This document shows, in pieces, positions 355-11,467 of a DNA stretch of 11,467 nt. How positions within the stretch are numbered: the first letter of the stretch is position 1; every line of letters begins with the position of its first letter. The translations under genes were made by a program, and so were the position numbers. The notes beneath the pieces are model-generated. The model searched no databases, was not told the origin of the DNA, and saw nothing but the letters and a program-made list of their open reading frames with translations. Origin of the DNA: Promethearchaeota archaeon (GTDB lineage: Archaea > Asgardarchaeota > Lokiarchaeia > Sigyniarchaeales > SOKP01); contig JAHLWH010000056.1 of assembly GCA_019058015.1 (NCBI GenBank), forward strand, positions 1 through 11,467, read 5' to 3'.

Positions 355-480
355 TTATCAAAATTATTAAAAATGTTAAGAAATGTTAGCAGTTTTTAAT
401 AAAAATTGTTCATGCGAAGTTTGGAACAAATCCCTTATTCGCACAGGCTGAAACCAGCAGCTTCTATCGGATAGATTTTG
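355..480 (-). ncRNA. Putative omegaRNA (reRNA) scaffold overlapping the tnpB 3' end
   Basis: TnpB omegaRNAs are known to be encoded at the element right end. Stems seen here: 438-445 with 411-418 (two G-U pairs valid only on the minus strand), 424-429 with 406-411, and 393-402 with 364-373. Limits approximate. Confidence 0.5.
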
Positions 481-1653
481 AATAAAATCATCTCCGACTA
501 CTTTTCTGAGGATATTTAATGCTCCATTTACGTCTGCATTGAGAAGGTAATTCGAGCCTCTAAATAATCCTCGTTTTATCCGTTTACCAACATAATTTTT
601 ATGCTTCTGAATCGGTTCTAAATCCAATGAGCTACATTTTGAAGTGTAAGACTCATTGACTTCATGAATTTGAATTCCTACAAGCTGAGTTTTATAAGTT
701 ATCATTTGTTTAAGCCTTTGAATGGGGATAGACACGAAATTCTGGTTATTTCGTTTGCCCATTCTGATATTCTGTTTTATATTTTCCAATTTACCTAAAC
801 AAATGTGTCCTATTTGGTTTTTTAAGCAATATCCTACAAGTAAATGAGCTGTATTATGTAAATAGTCAGTAATAACTGAATTTCGATTAATAGTAATATT
901 TTCAAGTCTTTTTGTCCACTTTAGGTTCTGTTTGTCTTTGATAGAATAGAGCCTTGCTTTACGTTTATTCCATTGCCGATTTATAGATTTTAAAATTCTA
1001 CCTGAAATGATAATTGGCTTTAAATTTCTGTTTTCTACTGTAGTTATTAAATTATTCAATCCAAAATCGATTGATAGATATCTCTTTGAATCCAACTTTG
1101 ATTTCTTTACGTCTTTTTTATATACTATTTCGATTTCATAGAAGTTCTTTCTTGGTAAGACCCTTATTTGTTGATAGTGTTCAAAATTCCTATTTTTATA
1201 GTGAGGGATAGATATTTCTATTGGAATCTTAAATTTAGAATATGTTTCTTTAAACAGTTTAGACATCATAAGAATGATTCTATTGTTTTTAATCTTGCTA
1301 TTCTGGTTGGTGAATATTAGAAGATTACTACAGGGTTTCTTATATTTAGGTGGTCTCGGTCTTCCATTGAACTTTTTTCGATTTTCTTTCCATTCTTTTA
1401 TCGCATTGAAGAAACTTTTCCAATTCTTATCTAAAGTTTTAAGAATCTGTTGAGAGGTTTGGGCTTTCAATAATTTATAATGAGTAGAATATTTTAAAAT
1501 GAAATTTAAATCTTCATATCGTAGCCAATTCTCTAGATTAAAAAAATCTTGCCTAACATACCAATTTGCTTGATTATAAAGTTTCTTAGAAATGGAGCAA
1601 AGCAAATCCAGATGCTCAGTCTTAGGGTTCCTGAATTTATACGCTAATTTCAT
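376..1653 (-). CDS. tnpB: RNA-guided endonuclease TnpB (IS607-associated, zinc-finger-less type)
   Basis: RuvC-I LSIDFGLNNL, VNESYTSKC, GKRIKRGLF, RuvC-III NADVNGALNIL, and N-terminal LYNQAN / SQQIL / WKSFF / PPKYK motifs. The track starts at GTG 1665; ATG 1653 (MKLAYKF) is the more likely start and overlaps the tnpA stop. Confidence 0.93.
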   Translation of the reverse strand: MKLAYKFRNPKTEHLDLLCSISKKLYNQANWYVRQDFFNLENWLRYEDLNFILKYSTHYKLLKAQTSQQILKTLDKNWKSFFNAIKEWKENRKKFNGRPRPPKYKKPCSNLLIFTNQNSKIKNNRIILMMSKLFKETYSKFKIPIEISIPHYKNRNFEHYQQIRVLPRKNFYEIEIVYKKDVKKSKLDSKRYLSIDFGLNNLITTVENRNLKPIIISGRILKSINRQWNKRKARLYSIKDKQNLKWTKRLENITINRNSVITDYLHNTAHLLVGYCLKNQIGHICLGKLENIKQNIRMGKRNNQNFVSIPIQRLKQMITYKTQLVGIQIHEVNESYTSKCSSLDLEPIQKHKNYVGKRIKRGLFRGSNYLLNADVNGALNILRKVVGDDFIQNLSDRSCWFQPVRIRDLFQTSHEQFLLKTANIS

Positions 1654-2239
1654 CTTTAAATTCACTTTTCTTTTTTATTATAAATTCTTTTCGTCTCCGT
1701 GAATACATTGACATCGCATAGCAATGCAATAATGATTTAATTTCCTGAAATATCTCCTGTTCCGTGGAAATGTATTCTAAATCATTGATAACGATTATCT
1801 TTGTTCCAAATTCATTAAATAATTTCTGAAATAGCTTAAACCCAATACGACTTAATCTGTCTTTATGAGAAATAATTACTAAATTAATCTTATCATTAAT
1901 TATTTCTTTAATCAAAAAGAGAAGATATTTTCTTTCTAATTTCATACCAGAAGCGATATCTTCATAGATTCCATTAATTACTATACCATTTTGAAAACAA
2001 TAACTCTTTAATGATTGAATTTGGGGTTCTAAATCTTTTTTTTGTTTTCTTGTTGAAACCCTTGCATACAATATATTCTTTCGTGGAATGTCTTTATTCA
2101 TAAAATCATATACAATTTTTTCATCATAATCATAACTCCCATTTGGAAACTTAATCACATTAATGATTCCTTGTTTTACATAATTTGTTAAGGTTGGTCG
2201 TGAAACTCTCAACAGATTTAAGACTTCACACGCTTTCAT
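1637..2239 (-). CDS. tnpA: IS607-family transposase TnpA (N-terminal MerR-like HTH + serine recombinase)
   Basis: N-terminal MKACEVLNLLRVSRPTLTNYVKQG HTH, catalytic YARVSTRKQKKDL, DIASG, KDRLSRIGF and C-terminal YSRRR. Confidence 0.94.
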   Translation of the reverse strand: MKACEVLNLLRVSRPTLTNYVKQGIINVIKFPNGSYDYDEKIVYDFMNKDIPRKNILYARVSTRKQKKDLEPQIQSLKSYCFQNGIVINGIYEDIASGMKLERKYLLFLIKEIINDKINLVIISHKDRLSRIGFKLFQKLFNEFGTKIIVINDLEYISTEQEIFQEIKSLLHCYAMSMYSRRRKEFIIKKKSEFKDEISV

Positions 2240-5409: not shown

Positions 5410-5682
5410 TTGCCAAAAAAACGAAAAAGCGGGGGAAAATCAGCCTCCCACAAAGGACAGAGCACTACAGTGCAGTGTGCAAACTGTGGCAGATTTGTTC
5501 CTAGAAGTAAAGCGAAACAAGTTACAAAACGTGTGTCTTTAGTAGATGGTCGTATATATAAAGAGCTTAGAGATGCGGGTGCTATAATCCAACGTCCAAC
5601 GCAGAGAGTTTATTATTGTATTTCATGTGCAATTCATAAACATAAAATCTCACAGCGTGACAAATCAACTAGAAAAACTTAG
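5410..5682 (+). CDS. rps26e: Small-subunit ribosomal protein eS26 (S26e)
   Basis: MPKKR N-terminus, VQCANCGRFVPRSKA and YYCISCAIH zinc knuckles; TTG start. Confidence 0.95.
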   Translation: MPKKRKSGGKSASHKGQSTTVQCANCGRFVPRSKAKQVTKRVSLVDGRIYKELRDAGAIIQRPTQRVYYCISCAIHKHKISQRDKSTRKT

Positions 5683-5859: not shown

Positions 5860-7824
5860 TTAAATATTCATCTGTTTAAAAAAGATCGGGAGATTGTATA
5901 TTACATCAATATATTTTTTATTCTTAATTTCAATGATAGCGCGAATTAGATATTCCTGCTTTAATTCTGTATTTGGAGTGTAAATCCGAACTTTTGCATT
6001 TGTATTTAATTTCAATGAATAATTTTCGGCGACGCCAGAAAGTTCATAATCTCCAAAAATTAAAAAACCTAACAGTCCTAATTCAGTATGAAGTGCAACG
6101 AATAACGTTTTTTCATTAGCTAAAGGCTGTATTTTAATAACTTCGAAGTAATCTTTTAATTTTTTATTAAGATTTTGATATGCTACAACCCGTTTTCCTG
6201 TAAGGAATTGAAATTTAGTGTAATATAATTTATGAAAATCATGGTATTGTCTGATTTGTTCATTATATTTATCAACATTTTTCAATTTGTAGGCTTTTTG
6301 AAATAAAAGATCTACATTTATATCCTCCATGGTATACCCACTTAAAATCGTAGCAATATACGCCCTTTTTAATTTATCAAGAAGTGTAGGTATTTTATAT
6401 TCAAAATTTCCATCGATTGCCATTTCTAGAGATTCATTATAAAGGGAAGCAGAAATTTGAGAGTGCCCCAATGCTAAAAAATAATCTCCTAATTCACTAA
6501 ATACAATCATTGCTTCTTCTAAATATTTTTCTGTATCATAATTAGAGAGTTCTTCAATTATTGAGATTGCTTGCTCTTTATTCTCTTGAGTTCCCATGAA
6601 TAAAGCTAAAGCTTTTCCAATAGTACATTTCAAAATTAGTTTTCTTTCATTATAAACTTCAGCAAGCTGGCTTGTAAAATCATATTGTTTGATAGCTGAA
6701 GTGTAAAAACCATGAAATATTCTAATAAGCGCCTTAAGATAATTTATTGTTAAACCAGTTCTCCAATTATGGATAATTGTTGAAAATAAGGCAGTTCTAT
6801 CAAAAGCTTCCAATGCAGAATTAACTTTTCCGATTTTAATTAATAGAAACCCACGTAAAAACTCCATTTTTGATAATTCTGAGCATATTAATTGATTTAT
6901 AATATCATAATTTCTTCCAGAAGTCTTTCCATGGGCAAGTTGTAATAGAGAAGTTAAAAATGAACTACCTTTTTTTAGATTTTTAACAGAATCTTTAATA
7001 TTTTCATCGATTAGTGAGTTTTTTGAGGAAATTAGATAACTTCGAGCAATCCTCAAATTTTCTAAAAAATTTAAGATCCCTTCAATTTTTTTTTCCTCAC
7101 TTCTCGGTAAATCATGCCCTTGAATAAACTTCTCGCTAATTTCGCATTCTTCCTTTATTGAAGCATCCATAGGCGTTAGAGGAATTCCCTGATCTTCTGA
7201 AATTGAGTCTTTTGTTATAATGGAATTTTCTGTTACTGAAACCGCTCTCTCTATGAGCCAAGTGATTTTCTCCTCTGCGAGATATACTTTTGAGCGCAAT
7301 ATCAAATAGGATAACGTATAATTAAGGCTTTTCCGCCAAATATTTTTAAAATATATTTTTAGCGATGGGTTTGAAACTGTTCTTTGGATTTGCAATAAAA
7401 AACCCGATAGTGACAGAACATTTATTTTACTTTTATAAAGTAGATTAATCTCTCGCACTAACTTAAAATCATCGGTTACAATTGTAATTTTCGCCGAATT
7501 ATCAATTTCAGATAACATATCTGCTAATGCTATTAACGATAAATCCGGATCTTGAGCAGGAAATCTAATTTTACGTCTCTTTAAAGCGTCTTTTATTAGC
7601 TTTATATTTGCATCAGATATTTGTTTTACATGAATAAAACTCTGAAATTTCTCTCGAAAACTAGCATTTACTCCTTTTATTTCAAAAAATACCTTTTCAC
7701 TGATAAAAAATTCAAGACCAAGAAGTTTTCCTGCAGTTTCTAAATTTTCGAGTATTTTTTTAGCACGTATTTCATTCATGCAGATGAAGAAATTTGCATC
7801 GAAAATTGTGATTTGTCTAGTCAT
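5860..7824 (-). CDS. PIN-domain ribonuclease fused to a TPR-like helical repeat region and a beta-rich C-terminal domain
   Basis: PIN acidic tetrad in the expected contexts: IFD9ANF, VFFE48I, DPD94LSLIALA, IVTD118D119FKL. TPR-like helices such as FLRGFLLIKIGKVNSALEAFDRT, YLKALIRIFHGFYTSAIKQYD and FSELGDYFLALGHSQISASLYNESL. Confidence 0.75.
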   Translation of the reverse strand: MTRQITIFDANFFICMNEIRAKKILENLETAGKLLGLEFFISEKVFFEIKGVNASFREKFQSFIHVKQISDANIKLIKDALKRRKIRFPAQDPDLSLIALADMLSEIDNSAKITIVTDDFKLVREINLLYKSKINVLSLSGFLLQIQRTVSNPSLKIYFKNIWRKSLNYTLSYLILRSKVYLAEEKITWLIERAVSVTENSIITKDSISEDQGIPLTPMDASIKEECEISEKFIQGHDLPRSEEKKIEGILNFLENLRIARSYLISSKNSLIDENIKDSVKNLKKGSSFLTSLLQLAHGKTSGRNYDIINQLICSELSKMEFLRGFLLIKIGKVNSALEAFDRTALFSTIIHNWRTGLTINYLKALIRIFHGFYTSAIKQYDFTSQLAEVYNERKLILKCTIGKALALFMGTQENKEQAISIIEELSNYDTEKYLEEAMIVFSELGDYFLALGHSQISASLYNESLEMAIDGNFEYKIPTLLDKLKRAYIATILSGYTMEDINVDLLFQKAYKLKNVDKYNEQIRQYHDFHKLYYTKFQFLTGKRVVAYQNLNKKLKDYFEVIKIQPLANEKTLFVALHTELGLLGFLIFGDYELSGVAENYSLKLNTNAKVRIYTPNTELKQEYLIRAIIEIKNKKYIDVIYNLPIFFKQMNI

Positions 7825-7916
7825 TAAAATATAATTATTAAAAAAAAATATTATATTTATTGAAAAATACTTAAATTTTCAACGGCGTAAAAGGATTTTT
7901 TAATTATGATGGTTTT

Positions 7917-10900
7917 TTATATTTTCGACAAAAAGGCATCTAAATTGTCTTTAGACCCCTTTTTTCTAGTTTTAGAATTTTTTAATCGATGCAATTTATA
8001 ATTATTTTGTTCGTTAAGCTTTTTCAATGTATCAAAACCTCTTAATCTAGTTAATTCAATAATTTCCTTAAATTTCTTCCGATTGTCATTACTTAAATTT
8101 AACAAATCGGCAAAAAGATCCCATTTAATAATTCGAATATTTTCGGGATATTTAATCCCTTTGTCTTTAGGGAGTTTTTTAACTCGACCAATCCAATGAT
8201 GATACCAATATATTCCGACAATAAATAACATAATTTTGGAATGTTGATATTTCTCAATTTTATCCATGATGGTGTTTTTTTTTAGTGAACTGGTATAATC
8301 AAAAAACACTACTTTAATGTGGTCTAATTTTTTAGGATCAATTTTTAACTCTTCAGCAATTCTATCTTTTAGAAGCTTTTGCAGATATTTTTTATCATTT
8401 TTAAATGCATTATCGCAACGTTTTTGATTACTAGGATAAATTTGGGGCTCTGAAAAAAGTATTGGAACATCCGGAGATTTTTTTCTTTTTTCATCTAAAT
8501 CTTGTGTGACTATTTTTTCAATTAATTTATGATTCACCTGCCCTATTATCTTTGATATATCCTCTTGGAATAATTTATTGAATTCTTCTTCTTCCAAGTT
8601 GTCTTGTAATATAACTCTGGCAGTACTCCATGCTACTCTCCATGTTTCTGCAATCTTAGTTATAGTGTCAAGATCTTTGGAGCGACCAGCTTTTATTATG
8701 CCTTCTCGTTGCTCATCGGATACCCAATCTGCAGGCTCTGGAAATTTCTTATGATATACTTTATCTCCCAAGTCATTTTGTATAATATCTATGGCTGTCC
8801 CAATTGCTACTCCAAATTCAGATGCAATCATACGAATAGAGTCAGGGTCTTCGGAGTGACCGGCTTTTATTATGCCTTTTCGTTGCTCATCGGATATTTC
8901 TCTATGAAATTTCGTATGATATTCTTTCTCTCCCAAGTCCTTAATTATTATCTTTCTAACAGTACCAACTGCTACTCCAAATTCATCTGCAATATTATCT
9001 AAAGAATCTGGATTTTTGGAGCGACCAGCTTTTATTATCCCCTCTCGTTGCTCATCGGATACCCAATCATCAGGACTTGGAAACCTCTTTTCATATTCTT
9101 TTTGTGTTAAAATTTTATGACAGATAGTTGTTAATGAACCTCTGCCTATTTTAAAATTCATTTCTTTTAATTTTCTATAAATTTTTTGCTTTGAAAACTT
9201 AGTATATTTGATGTAATGTTCAAGAAGATTATCTATATTTTTATTTTCATTGAATTCATCTATTCTTTTTACTAAATTATTTTTCTCTTCTTTAGTTAGC
9301 GCATCATTTTCTTCACTTTTAATAAATTTAATAAATTTCTTAGTAAAATGAGTACCCTTATAGACAATACCACCATCATATTTTTTTATTAATTCTTTCA
9401 ATTTCGGATCTTTTAAAATCTTAAATTCTTCTATAGCTTTATCAATAAGATCTTCCAAATCTTTTGATTTTGTATCTTTATTTAAATTCTTTGAGTCTAT
9501 TCCTGAATCTTTAATATCATTGTTGTTATGACTTTCTTCATCCCGCTCTGAAGTTGGTTCCGATTCTTTAGCATCTTCTTGGTCTTCTTTCTGTTCTATG
9601 AAAGTTGTGGAAAATGTGGGAGCTATAATTTTTTGGCCTCTCTTGATTCCGATTTGTTTCCATTTCTTATAATATTTTTTCTCTCCCAAGTAATTTTTTA
9701 TAATATCACTAACTTTACCACTTTCTACTTTCCACTTAGCTGCGATCTTATATACGGGAATAACTTTTTCAGAACGGGCGTCTTCTATTATACCTTTTCG
9801 TTGCTCATCGGATACCCGATCTTTAGGCATTAAAAACCTTTTTTCATATTCTTTCAGTGTTAAAATCTTATGTAATTTATATGTTAATGCAAGTTTGGTT
9901 ATTTTAAAATTCATTTCTTCTAATTTTCTACGAATTTTTTCCTTTGAAAAAAAAGTGTATTTGATGTAATGTTCAAGAAGATTATCTATATTTTTATTTT
10001 CATTGAATTCATCTATTCTTTTTACTAAATTATTTTTCTCTTTTATAGTCTGTCCATCATTTTCTTCACTTTTAATAAATTTAATAAATTTCTTAGTAAA
10101 ATGAGTACCCTTATAAGCGAGACCATCATATTTTTTAATTAATTCTTTCAATTTTGGATCTTTGAAAATCTTAAATTCTTTTATAGCTTTATCAATAAGA
10201 TCTTCCAAATCTTCTAATTCTTCTCCTTCTAATTTTACCTCTTCTTCTGTTTTTTTATTTAAATTCTCCGAATCTTTTTCTGAATCTTTAATATCATTGT
10301 TGTTATGACTTTCCTCATTTCGCTCTGAAGTTGGTTCCGATTCTTTATCATCTTCTTGATTATTTTCCTGAACTGTGGAGGTCGTGGAGGATGTGGTAGC
10401 TGTAATTTTTTTATTATCTTTTTTATTTTCCTTTCCTTTTAACGATAGTTCTTGTTCTGGTTCATCTTTTTGGATATCTTGTTCTTTATCCTCAACCTGA
10501 CCCCTAAATTCCCTCTTCAACCTTTCATTCAAATTCTTTCTTTGATCAATAAACCCCCCAAACTCTCTCCTCAACCTCTGCTTTAAATTGAGTGTTTGAT
10601 CAGTAAAACCCGTTCTTTTATAATCCATTTCCATTTGGTTTTCTTTCTCTTGTTCTGATGTTTGTTCCTCTTCTTTAGTATCTTTTTGATTTTCTTTCTG
10701 ATCTGTGGAAGTTGTGGAAGATGTGGTAGCCGTAATTTCTTTACTTTCTTCTCCACTTTCTTTTCCTATTAACGATAATTCTTGTTCTGATGTATCTTGA
10801 TTATTTTTATCTATACTTAAATCATAATTAATCTCATTTTCATTCCCCTCTTCATATAAGTTTTCTATTTGAGGTTCTCTAATATAGTCCTGTCCAAGAG

Positions 10901-11467
10901 TCTTGGTATGCACATTAGTGATATCTATCGTCATAGGTTCAATAACATTTGAAATTTCCAAAGAGTCATCTTCTAAATTATATTGAGTATTTGAGAGATC
11001 TACAAATTCATTTAAGAACATATCTTTAATATTCCAAGATTCATTATCTAACTCCATTAATTCCTCTTTTATTTCTTCTCTTGCTATGTCTTGAGTAATT
11101 TTACTATCTTGAAAATCGCTTGAGGATATATCTTTTATTTCCAATAATTCTCCATCTAATTCAGATAACTCAACTTCTAACAACTCTTGAATAATCGGAG
11201 CTTCTTGAAATTCGCTTGAGATTATATCATCTAATTCTGATAATTCATCTTCTAACATATCTTGAATAACTGGAGTTTCTTTCAATTCATATGAAGATAT
11301 ATCTTCCAATTCAGATAATTCTCCATCCACTTCTGATAACTCATCTTTTAATACGTCTTGAATAACTGGAACTTCTTGAAATTCACTTGAACATATGTCA
11401 TCCATTTCCGGTAAGGCTGCGTCCAATCCAGATAACGCATCTCTTGCTATCTCTTGAACATCTGAAT
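7917..11467 (-). CDS. Large repeat protein (5'-truncated): acidic repeats, duplicated module, six HTH repeats, C-terminal PD-(D/E)XK-like nuclease
   Basis: The frame stays open upstream of the track's TTG at 11426 (SDVQEIARDALSG), and that stretch matches the acidic repeat, so the true start is outside the window. HTH pattern e.g. SLDNIADEFGVAVGTVRKII. Nuclease motifs GQVNHKLIE, SEPQI, KRCDNA and VFFDYTS. Confidence 0.8.
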   Translation of the reverse strand, partial: SDVQEIARDALSGLDAALPEMDDICSSEFQEVPVIQDVLKDELSEVDGELSELEDISSYELKETPVIQDMLEDELSELDDIISSEFQEAPIIQELLEVELSELDGELLEIKDISSSDFQDSKITQDIAREEIKEELMELDNESWNIKDMFLNEFVDLSNTQYNLEDDSLEISNVIEPMTIDITNVHTKTLGQDYIREPQIENLYEEGNENEINYDLSIDKNNQDTSEQELSLIGKESGEESKEITATTSSTTSTDQKENQKDTKEEEQTSEQEKENQMEMDYKRTGFTDQTLNLKQRLRREFGGFIDQRKNLNERLKREFRGQVEDKEQDIQKDEPEQELSLKGKENKKDNKKITATTSSTTSTVQENNQEDDKESEPTSERNEESHNNNDIKDSEKDSENLNKKTEEEVKLEGEELEDLEDLIDKAIKEFKIFKDPKLKELIKKYDGLAYKGTHFTKKFIKFIKSEENDGQTIKEKNNLVKRIDEFNENKNIDNLLEHYIKYTFFSKEKIRRKLEEMNFKITKLALTYKLHKILTLKEYEKRFLMPKDRVSDEQRKGIIEDARSEKVIPVYKIAAKWKVESGKVSDIIKNYLGEKKYYKKWKQIGIKRGQKIIAPTFSTTFIEQKEDQEDAKESEPTSERDEESHNNNDIKDSGIDSKNLNKDTKSKDLEDLIDKAIEEFKILKDPKLKELIKKYDGGIVYKGTHFTKKFIKFIKSEENDALTKEEKNNLVKRIDEFNENKNIDNLLEHYIKYTKFSKQKIYRKLKEMNFKIGRGSLTTICHKILTQKEYEKRFPSPDDWVSDEQREGIIKAGRSKNPDSLDNIADEFGVAVGTVRKIIIKDLGEKEYHTKFHREISDEQRKGIIKAGHSEDPDSIRMIASEFGVAIGTAIDIIQNDLGDKVYHKKFPEPADWVSDEQREGIIKAGRSKDLDTITKIAETWRVAWSTARVILQDNLEEEEFNKLFQEDISKIIGQVNHKLIEKIVTQDLDEKRKKSPDVPILFSEPQIYPSNQKRCDNAFKNDKKYLQKLLKDRIAEELKIDPKKLDHIKVVFFDYTSSLKKNTIMDKIEKYQHSKIMLFIVGIYWYHHWIGRVKKLPKDKGIKYPENIRIIKWDLFADLLNLSNDNRKKFKEIIELTRLRGFDTLKKLNEQNNYKLHRLKNSKTRKKGSKDNLDAFLSKI
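8568..9812 (-). repeat. Four ~51-aa SDEQR-type HTH repeats (9660-9812, 8907-9059, 8742-8894, 8568-8720)
   Basis: The exact 16-mer CGTTGCTCATCGGATA starts at 8707, 8881, 9046 and 9799. The tandem units are spaced 174 and 165 bp. Confidence 0.9.
8907..10411 (-). repeat. Intragenic tandem duplication of ~730-750 bp (9660-10411 and 8907-9634)
   Basis: Offset 777 bp at the N-terminal part and 753 bp after in-frame indels. Identical blocks of 85 bp (9958-10042 = 9205-9289) and 61 bp (10055-10115 = 9302-9362). Confidence 0.95.
10340..10788 (-). repeat. Duplicated Ser/Thr linker (EQELSL..ITATTSSTTST, 330-bp offset) flanking a 2 x 54-bp repeat
   Basis: AACGATA at 10441 and 10771. Inner units 10548-10601 (DQTLNLKQRLRREFGGFI) and 10494-10547 (DQRKNLNERLKREFRGQV). 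Confidence 0.85.
11000..11467 (-). repeat. Acidic 32-aa (96-bp) tandem repeats, at least 5 units, possibly continuing beyond the window
   Basis: TCTTG anchors at 11089, 11185, 11260, 11356 and 11452 (spacing 96, 75, 96, 96). Consensus roughly IQDxLxDELSELDGELxExxDISSSEFQExPx. Confidence 0.88.

Follow-up and report, generated by a model that had tools for sequence, protein, structure and literature searches.

A variable helix-turn-helix array joined to a predicted restriction-endonuclease-like domain in one Asgard lineage

Proteins that join helix-turn-helix (HTH) readers to PD-(D/E)XK cutters are already known from FokI and many restriction enzymes, as are homing endonucleases built with tandem modules. 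Here we describe a gene of comparable layout from a Promethearchaeota archaeon. It lies on an 11,467-nt stretch of DNA, called the window below, which is the entire contig C45 of a 3.84-Mb, 283-contig assembly, 29% G+C. The minus strand of the window encodes a protein in which an array of HTH repeats leads into a 217-residue C-terminal domain with a restriction-endonuclease-like fold in its structure model. We give about an even chance to the most likely reading, a nuclease directed to DNA by a modular HTH reader that evolves fast.

Type IIS enzymes of the FokI type resemble the window protein in placing an HTH-type reader N-terminal to a separate C-terminal PD-(D/E)XK cleavage domain, and the FokI recognition domain contains several HTH-like subdomains. 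That recognition domain is a fixed tripartite unit, whereas in the window family the number of near-identical repeats varies and can reach 8; the family further differs in having no methyltransferase found with it, Thr at the place of the lysine, an acidic N-terminus of ~800 aa and no sequence relationship to FokI. Homing endonucleases of the I-TevI/I-HmuI type (NUMOD/HTH modules) likewise tether a nuclease to strings of small DNA-binding modules, and those with tandem modules recognize long, tolerant targets. One member of the window family, P0011, has a weak NUMOD1 match (20.8 bits vs a cut-off of 22.8). In contrast to the homing enzymes, the fold predicted here is restriction-endonuclease-like, not GIY-YIG/HNH, and none of the loci examined showed the gene inside an intron, an intein or a recognized mobile element. 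R2 elements pair Myb/zinc-finger DNA readers at the N-terminus with a PD-(D/E)XK-like domain at the C-terminus. The R2 restriction-like endonuclease (RLE) stands among the top Foldseek rows for the window domain and reaches Z 5.0-5.6 in VIA-align, whereas Pfam gave no reverse transcriptase match here and, with E 0.03-0.5 and Z < 6, homology is not established.

The likeness to TALE proteins and TALENs is one of working principle only, namely tandem near-identical repeats with variation at few positions and with gain, loss and re-ordering. The window repeat is a tri-helical HTH of ~55 aa, whereas the TALE repeat is a 34-aa two-helix unit; ~8-10 positions vary per repeat here vs 2 in TALE, and no superhelical packing is predicted (pTM 0.39). 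Unlike in TALENs, the nuclease-like domain is naturally fused, and a repeat-to-subsite code is unproven. Among PD-(D/E)XK defence nucleases, McrC, Can2/Card1, Cap4, NucC, Avs3 and HerA-DUF4297 provide the best structure matches to the C-terminal domain (Z 5.5-6.7), and the patchy, multi-copy spread of the family is typical of conflict genes. The window family differs from them in that no CARF, SAVED, AAA+ or STAND domain was detected and PADLOC gave no match; targeting would come from the HTH array. FASTK proteins, in which helical repeats are joined to a PD-(D/E)XK-like RAP domain, offer a loose analogy only, their 'HTH repeats' being helical-hairpin solenoids and not DNA-type HTHs in the part of the source available to us (PMC12687428).

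New here are a domain family that lies outside all libraries searched and is expanded in, and nearly restricted to, one Asgard lineage; a reader in which up to eight near-identical HTH repeats form an array of changing length and diversify at particular positions, together with an acidic tail of ~800 aa; and the recruitment of the same domain, inactivated to judge from its residues, to the cytoplasmic ends of surface proteins. No published description of the family was found in full-text literature searches, judged from their listings; supplements of Asgard defence or mobilome papers might list it. If active, these proteins would join zinc fingers and TAL repeats as a third natural way of addressing long DNA targets with small modules, and the fact that the modules are already fused to a putative cleavage domain makes them of interest for genome-conflict biology and protein engineering. 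Within the restriction-endonuclease-like fold the family also marks out a branch that had not been modelled so far. Its domain has been combined with HTH arrays, with TFIIB repeats, with exonucleases and, apparently inactivated, with the cytoplasmic tails of large surface proteins.

The gene occupies a single open frame on the minus strand. Because this frame stays open up to the contig end, the gene start falls off the contig, and position 10411, which the earlier note on this DNA had taken as the left limit, is no gene boundary. At the end of contig C26 lies the 5' part of a P0003-like gene, comprising its start codon and first ~387 codons, and by this sequence match the missing 5' end of the window gene probably lies there. 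The features of the gene are as follows (HMM, hidden Markov model).

7917-11465, minus strand: open reading frame (ORF), the 3' 1,182 codons of the gene, with the stop codon at 7917-7919 and the 5' side truncated by the contig end
10146-11465, minus strand: acidic low-complexity region, aa 1-440, net charge -75, holding 171-nt tandem repeats
9013-10411, minus strand: internal segmental duplication (linker, pre-A helices, A, start of B), copies 753-777 nt apart
9834-9992, minus strand: class A module copy 1, aa 492-544, taken to be helical because copy 2 is
9654-9824, minus strand: class B HTH repeat 1, aa 548-604, from the repeat HMM and coordinates
9075-9239, minus strand: class A module copy 2, aa 743-797, tentatively a diverged member of the repeat family, four helices in the model
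8898-9071, minus strand: class B HTH repeat 2, aa 799-856, from sequence and AlphaFold2 model
8736-8897, minus strand: class B HTH repeat 3, aa 857-910, from sequence and AlphaFold2 model
8571-8732, minus strand: class B HTH repeat 4, aa 912-965, from sequence and AlphaFold2 model, adjoining the C-terminal domain
7920-8570, minus strand: C-terminal 217-aa domain, aa 966-1182, restriction-endonuclease-like fold in the model

The analysis reproduced both the module order that had been read from the letters, A-B...A-B-B-B, and the exact places of the modules (NIDN at aa 492 and 743; SDEQR at aa 552, 803, 858 and 916). A unit composed of a helical head, a class A module and a class B repeat occurs twice, in residues 441-610 and 691-857; two more class B repeats follow the second unit and lead into the C-terminal domain. 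A DNA repeat search of the window placed the duplicated pair at about 9013-9634 and 9766-10411 (84-94% identity) and found the B unit as four in-register copies with spacings of 174, 165 and 753 nt. The first A-B pair is explained by the internal duplication of 753-777 nt. The close orthologues P0003 and P0131 have one A and four B modules, and the six-module layout is therefore peculiar to the window copy. Logan contigs from two runs cover 9507-9987 (B1 to linker) and 8394-9234 (A2 through B4 to the domain) with zero or few differences, although these two, the best-matching ones, may derive from the source sample itself; the Logan contigs of four runs were too fragmented for any to span the gene or the entire duplication, and no RNA run was listed as containing the gene. 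Full-length relatives measure 1,286-1,338 aa and start with an acidic stretch of ~800 residues that lacks a hydrophobic leader, the net charge of P0003 over aa 1-790 being -164.

The C-terminal domain was modelled with AlphaFold2 from 34 sequences at a pLDDT of 90.9 and a pTM of 0.89. Its core has the order alpha-beta-beta-beta-alpha-beta (helix 2-31, strands 38-42, 54-57 and 87-93, helix 98-108, strand 113-119). Compared with 48,161 structure representatives in VIA-align, the model returned Z 4.2-5.6, and 38 of the top 50 rows, judged by their titles, are restriction, CRISPR/CBASS-associated, repair, cap-snatching or 'restriction endonuclease-like' proteins. The best of these rows is McrC (6hz4_M, Z 5.6, rmsd 3.5, 113 aligned); others are Can2, Avs3, Bax1, SgrAI, Bse634I, NucC, BglII, Cfr10I and EcoRII, and the FokI cleavage domain (2fok_A) scores Z 4.2. 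A second round of structure comparison gave HerA-DUF4297 as best match (9c1m_G, Z 6.7, rmsd 4.3, 133 aligned). The top Foldseek rows, all weak, were R2 RLE, MspJI, Bax1 and Ecl18kI, and the ESM Atlas leads, all below 0.9, were Flu_PA, PDDEXK_3 and PDDEXK_11 at 0.82-0.83. A homodimer prediction scored 0.10 against a mark of 0.42, which says nothing either way. Since the Z-scores are modest, assignment to PD-(D/E)XK draws on the uniformity of the match list together with the residue pattern described next, and with modest confidence the model places the domain as a divergent, fold-level member of that superfamily.

Candidate site residues are given below by their number in the domain (in the protein), each with its family-wide conservation.

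H14 (979): 59/60
E41 (1006): 60/88
D53 (1018): 76/94
D91 (1056): D in 72/116, E in 11/116
T93 (1058): T in 102/116
K104 (1069): 84/119
K107 (1072): 97/119
Q109 (1074): 89/119
N144 (1109): 117/131

D53, just ahead of strand 54-57, and D91-x-T93, in strand 87-93, lie where the 'D' and the '(D/E)xK' motifs are expected. The triad [E/D]41-D53-[D/E]91 is present in 43 of the 45 HTH-fused proteins that cover the sites; among HTH-fused members position 91 is D or E in 48/48 and K107 is kept in 47/48, and fusions to RNase_T, treated below, have the triad in 4/6. A clade of membrane-anchored relatives (13 proteins) has it in none of the 8 that cover the sites. Of these 13 proteins, 12 have I or V at position 91 and only 4 retain K107; K104 has given way to other residues, and no alignment is obtained over helix 1 with H14. 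Loss of the charged constellation as a block in this clade, set against its strictness elsewhere, points to a functional site in the HTH-fused proteins, and E41-D53-D91...K104/K107 is on this pattern probably catalytic. K104 or K107, on the helix after strand 3, may substitute for the missing lysine of (D/E)xK. Relocated catalytic residues and variant motifs occur in the PD-(D/E)XK superfamily, as in Cfr10I/NgoMIV, BamHI and BglII.

The reader half of the protein was modelled separately (AlphaFold2 of aa 690-969, 16-row alignment, pLDDT 80). Each B repeat forms three helices and a short fourth; in one example (helices 115-126, 133-140 and 144-155, pLDDT 80-94) these make a three-helix bundle with HTH geometry, and in the models the B repeats are homeodomain-like tri-helical HTHs. 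An exhaustive structure comparison, in which Z is limited by the small size of the domain, matched a single repeat best to the bipartite DNA-binding domain of Tc3 transposase (1u78_A, Z 6.2), and also to the HTH of Sin recombinase (2r0q_C, Z 5.9, rmsd 1.7, 45 aligned) and Tc3 (1tc3_C, Z 5.8, rmsd 2.3, 47 aligned). Further matches were GcrA, the Tn3 resolvase HTH, Myb repeats and homeodomains, with the Sin and Tn3 resolvase HTHs superposing at an rmsd of 1.7-2.8 A over 45 residues. With the whole-array model Foldseek returned nothing at E <= 0.001, and its weak matches, all at E >= 0.15, were sigma factors, Mu transposase, AraC/Rns and the DUX4 double homeodomain.

In profile searches the window protein itself reaches 17.6 bits against Pfam HTH_23, under the 24.6-bit cut-off. 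Among homologues, 58 of the 126 found were scanned against Pfam, and 10 of these pass the cut-offs of HTH_23, HTH_28, Sigma70_r4, HTH_IclR and others (P0011 with HTH_23 at 67.2 bits); an iterated repeat HMM ties their repeats to those of the window. Of the six proposed HTH repeats, the class B repeats are HTHs in the models; the HTH identity of class A is tentative. The iterated HMM matches class A copy 2 at aa 751-796 (positions 12-53 of 53, 3.8e-6) and class A equivalents in C111, C163 and P0003 at 3e-7 to 1.5e-4; it has no match to copy 1 at the 0.001 cut-off, and in the exhaustive structure comparison class A was not covered by any HTH structure. Class A may tentatively be viewed as a diverged member of the HTH-repeat family. 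An HD-domain reading of this part was set aside: NCBIfam 'HD domain, cyanamide hydratase' matched aa 473-543 at E 1.9e-4, with 21 vs 109.85 bits, and the pre-A helices matched the HD protein YpgQ at Z 5.6, scores that are low, and no H...HD motif was seen.

The array varies across the family. The iterated HMM counted 1-7 repeats per protein in 48/132 family proteins, and the locus L011 has 8; in full-length domain matches the last repeat ends within a few residues of the domain start. Variation within the repeat was measured over 31 B repeats, drawn from the window protein and from 8 of its close relatives. Helix 1 (SDEQREGIIKAGRS) hardly varies (entropy 0-0.8 bits). The variable columns are 25-26, 29-30, 34-36, 39-40 and 43-44; with the conserved G-V-S turn as reference, they correspond to the beginning of helix 2 and to helix 3 positions 1, 2, 5, 6, 9 and 10. 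Entropy reaches 2-3.4 bits at columns 25, 29, 34-36 and 39, with maxima at the start of helix 2 and at helix 3 positions 1, 2, 5 and 6. In classical HTHs the start of helix 2 and the faces of the recognition helix contact bases. The pattern that the earlier note had described, helix 1 conserved and the helix 2 start and recognition helix variable, is borne out by these entropies.

A Nei-Gojobori count over 19 B repeats gave an overall pS of 0.43, and the invariance of helix 1 therefore reflects purifying selection, not recent copying. The ratio pN/mean pS is 1.05-1.70 at columns 25, 34, 35, 36 and 39 (helix 2 start, turn and helix 3) and 0-0.4 in helix 1; it is a crude pairwise count, not a phylogenetic one, over repeats that are not independent, and is suggestive of diversification at recognition-helix positions. 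Repeats 2 and 3 of P0003 are identical, and 94% identity links repeats 1 and 2 of P0128 and repeats 1 and 3 of P0131. Because some arrays hold identical repeats, that each repeat reads a different subsite can only be inferred.

The nearest relative of a repeat lies within the same protein for only 9/31 repeats, and positions change between proteins: repeat 1 of 2 in C163 is nearest to repeat 4 of 4 in P0003, which in turn is nearest to repeat 1 of P0132. By these sequence comparisons the array evolves through tandem duplication, loss and re-ordering of repeats. The C-terminal domain is constrained, with dN/dS 0.24-0.35 in 15/15 pairs and 74-79% identity among homologues whose recognition-helix residues vary. 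The expectation that repeat number and recognition helices would vary around a conserved nuclease-like domain was thus confirmed.

A profile built from the six copies in the genome was run against 1.84 billion representative proteins and yielded 126 matches, 100 of them at E <= 1e-10; in 62/79 near-full matches the domain lies <=40 residues from the C-terminus. The six ORFs with the full domain are on C45, C111, C163, C28, C222 and C36, four of them running off a contig end and two lying within 36 nt of one, and the genome also holds distant members on C83 and C184 and one fragment. The genome thus has six paralogues or more, the window ORF included. All related loci found in named genomes come from Promethearchaeota or Promethearchaeia metagenome-assembled genomes (MAGs), in agreement with an Asgard origin. 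In a sample of the phylum, matches occur in 29/301 genomes, with 27/68 in the family of the window and 1/232 elsewhere, and genomes of the same genus have 1, 3, 7 and 7 matches, which are not exact copy numbers. Judged from these searches, the protein family is almost confined to one Promethearchaeota family, patchy and variable in copy number.

The domain has several partners. TFIIB cyclin repeats follow it in the C184 ORF (27.5 bits) and in P0101 (85.1 bits), both above the cut-off, and an RNase_T (DEDD) exonuclease follows it in 6/58 scanned proteins (P0033, P0037, P0049, P0053, P0078 and P0085). Two members have weak matches, below the cut-off, to the treble-clef zinc finger family DUF4379. 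The membrane-anchored clade (P0035, P0039, P0042, P0081, P0023, P0058 and P0066 among others) combines LamG, DUF2341 or Ig-like domains, one transmembrane (TM) helix, a ~100-aa helical linker and the degenerate domain, with a hydrophobic N-terminal segment in most; the NCBI name of P0035 is that of a DUF2341 protein of a Lokiarchaeota MAG. A polymorphic-toxin reading was rejected: the HTH-type orthologues begin acidic and non-hydrophobic, with no signal peptide by eye, and a conserved C-terminus behind a variable upstream part is the reverse of what polymorphic toxins have.

Smaller observations on family members were also made. The C184 ORF (12276-13979, minus strand; L013:2277-3980) has N-terminal ~70-aa repeats of another type, in common with the C83 ORF. 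A member of the RNase_T-fusion cluster carries the source name 'DNA polymerase III epsilon subunit-like protein', and P0130 has, by eye, a cysteine/histidine-rich insert in place of the linker of its orthologues. At L008, from a Promethearchaeia MAG, the domain is a stand-alone 211-aa ORF (5953-6588, plus strand), ~1.7 kb upstream of a gene for an AAA_5 (McrB/MoxR-like) ATPase and a 577-aa ORF.

From the architecture, the folds, the conservation pattern and the repeat dynamics seen in models and sequences, we infer DNA binding, catalysis, target length, per-repeat reading and a biological role as follows. The HTH array would bind DNA and select the site, and the C-terminal domain would cleave nearby, with two or three acidic residues holding the metal and a lysine of the helix after strand 3 replacing the absent lysine of (D/E)xK. 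Turnover of repeats and changes at recognition-helix positions 1, 2, 5 and 6 would shift the target. The partners RNase_T, TFIIB repeats and weakly matched zinc fingers act on nucleic acids, which favours the nuclease reading. Patchy distribution, variable copy number and the lack of fixed neighbours make genome conflict the most likely role, whether the protein defends against foreign DNA or is itself a selfish nuclease.

Several results weigh against a DNA-targeting nuclease. The earlier note had proposed a PD-(D/E)XK nuclease: the restriction-endonuclease-like fold was recovered in the model, but the canonical (D/E)xK lysine is absent, position 93 being T in 102/116, S in 10/116 and never K, and the structural Z-scores are all < 8, below the level advised for trust. 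Foldseek gave nothing at E <= 0.001 for the C-terminal model. No match to the domain was obtained in Pfam, NCBIfam, PADLOC or PHROGs, and searches of PDB sequences with two profiles gave best E-values of 0.83 and 0.2, both to unrelated proteins. One whole clade of the domain is evidently non-catalytic, so the fold can have another role. On the reader side, the array has a pTM of 0.39, its inter-repeat geometry is not confident and AlphaFold2 predicts no rigid solenoid; repeats B2-B4 are net acidic (-2, -3 and -5), and the recognition helix of B3 is without a basic residue. Pfam revealed no methyltransferase or immunity-like partner among 8 window ORFs and 15 ORFs around L001, L007 and L008, and the neighbours, which are housekeeping genes, differ at every locus. 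With no protective partner found, the escape of the host from an active nuclease is unexplained.

Many of these points fit a non-catalytic DNA-binding regulator or chromatin protein, the main rival reading, which we consider rather less likely than the nuclease. The domain would then mediate dimerization, clamp DNA or bind partners, the acidic tail would act in activation or autoinhibition, and the membrane-anchored relatives would be signalling partners. The missing catalytic lysine and the lack of a protective methyltransferase or immunity gene nearby are what such a protein would lead one to expect, and a transcription-factor module, the TFIIB cyclin repeats, is fused in some members; the TBP-interacting protein Tk-TIP26 is among the fold matches (Z 5.4), and the membrane clade has lost the acidic residues while carrying LamG, DUF2341 or Ig-like parts across a TM helix. 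A purely structural role is, however, hard to reconcile with the near-strict triad (43/45) and K107 (47/48) of HTH-fused proteins and with their joint loss in the membrane clade. RNase_T fusions point to nucleic-acid cutting, and diversification at recognition positions, patchiness and swings in copy number are unusual for housekeeping regulators.

A bolder form of the nuclease reading, and a decidedly improbable one in our judgment, is a natural, self-diversifying 'programmable' Asgard nuclease. Each ~55-aa repeat would read a short subsite through recognition-helix positions 1, 2, 5 and 6, and a limited vocabulary of repeats would be duplicated and re-ordered to retarget the enzyme against changing foreign DNA. 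The ~800-aa acidic tail would keep the enzyme off host DNA, and the catalytically dead, membrane-anchored copies would pair with the enzyme as regulators.

We hold out still less hope for a selfish element, be it a free-standing homing endonuclease or a Tc3/IS630-style transposase-like nuclease that spreads its own copies. The gene is multi-copy in one genome (7 matches), contigs end in or near the copies, the HTH repeats are most like those of transposases and resolvases, the best fold matches include endonuclease domains of R2 retrotransposons, and a duplicated fragment of the start of the downstream gene sits upstream of another copy on C26. Set against this, similarity between paralogues at the DNA level ends a few bases past the stop codon, leaving, on the 3' side that could be compared, no shared flank or terminal repeat, and the paralogues are diverged (dS 0.3-0.47) and not near-identical recent insertions. 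No intron, intein or recognized mobile-element context was seen at the loci examined, where housekeeping neighbours differ from locus to locus, and a pattern scan of IMG/VR viral contigs found no relative, a weak negative from two peptide patterns. The homing-type element suggested in the earlier note therefore finds no backing in the context of the loci examined or in the paralogues, whose similarity stops at the stop codon.

Least probable by our estimate, a slight chance at most, is an RNA-directed protein in which helical repeats bind RNA and the PD-(D/E)XK-like domain acts as an endoribonuclease: the net acidic to neutral B repeats, the RNase_T exonuclease of some members, the RNA-cutting folds among the matches (Can2/Card1 and cap-snatching endonucleases) and the FASTK-type resemblance (helical repeats plus a PD-(D/E)XK-like RAP domain, in the available part of PMC12687428) are outweighed by repeats that are tri-helical DNA-type HTHs matching domains solved on DNA and not helical-hairpin solenoids, by Pfam scans without a RAP or FAST match and by the DNA-oriented TFIIB repeats and weak zinc-finger matches.

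The surroundings of the gene are heterogeneous. By Pfam, the other window genes are an IS607-like resolvase with TnpB, an aspartate-semialdehyde dehydrogenase, a SPOUT methyltransferase, a CDP-alcohol phosphatidyltransferase and S26e, next to a 654-aa ORF. The only methyltransferase near the HTH-array gene is that SPOUT-type protein, of the RNA methyltransferase family PF04013, 3.3 kb away. Neighbours at other loci include PyrI, NFACT, GDPD, aldolase and subtilase, and none of the other ORFs of the window recurs at the paralogous and orthologous loci L001-L011.

Directly downstream of the HTH-array gene lies the 654-aa ORF (5860-7824, minus strand), which has no match in Pfam, PADLOC or PHROGs. 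Its first 38 codons and upstream DNA (7709-7865) are duplicated on C26 at 1682-1836. There the duplicate precedes a further HTH-array gene, whose start codon follows ~1 kb downstream, and this hints at a past tandem arrangement. Within the repeat region, two antisense ORFs (8709-9002, plus strand, 97 codons; 9579-9833, plus strand, 84 codons) are both most likely spurious, the former recurring opposite the C111 paralogue only through recurrence of the DNA repeats. The IS607-like pair (376-2239, minus strand) lies ~5.7 kb from the HTH-array gene, with no link to it seen, and consists of a serine recombinase (Resolvase 3.6e-19, N-terminal HTH_17) that overlaps a downstream OrfB_IS605/TnpB-type protein with a Cas12f1-like TNB domain. 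The ribosomal protein S26e gene (5410-5682, plus strand, 5.6e-18) fits an archaeal (Asgard) origin of the contig.

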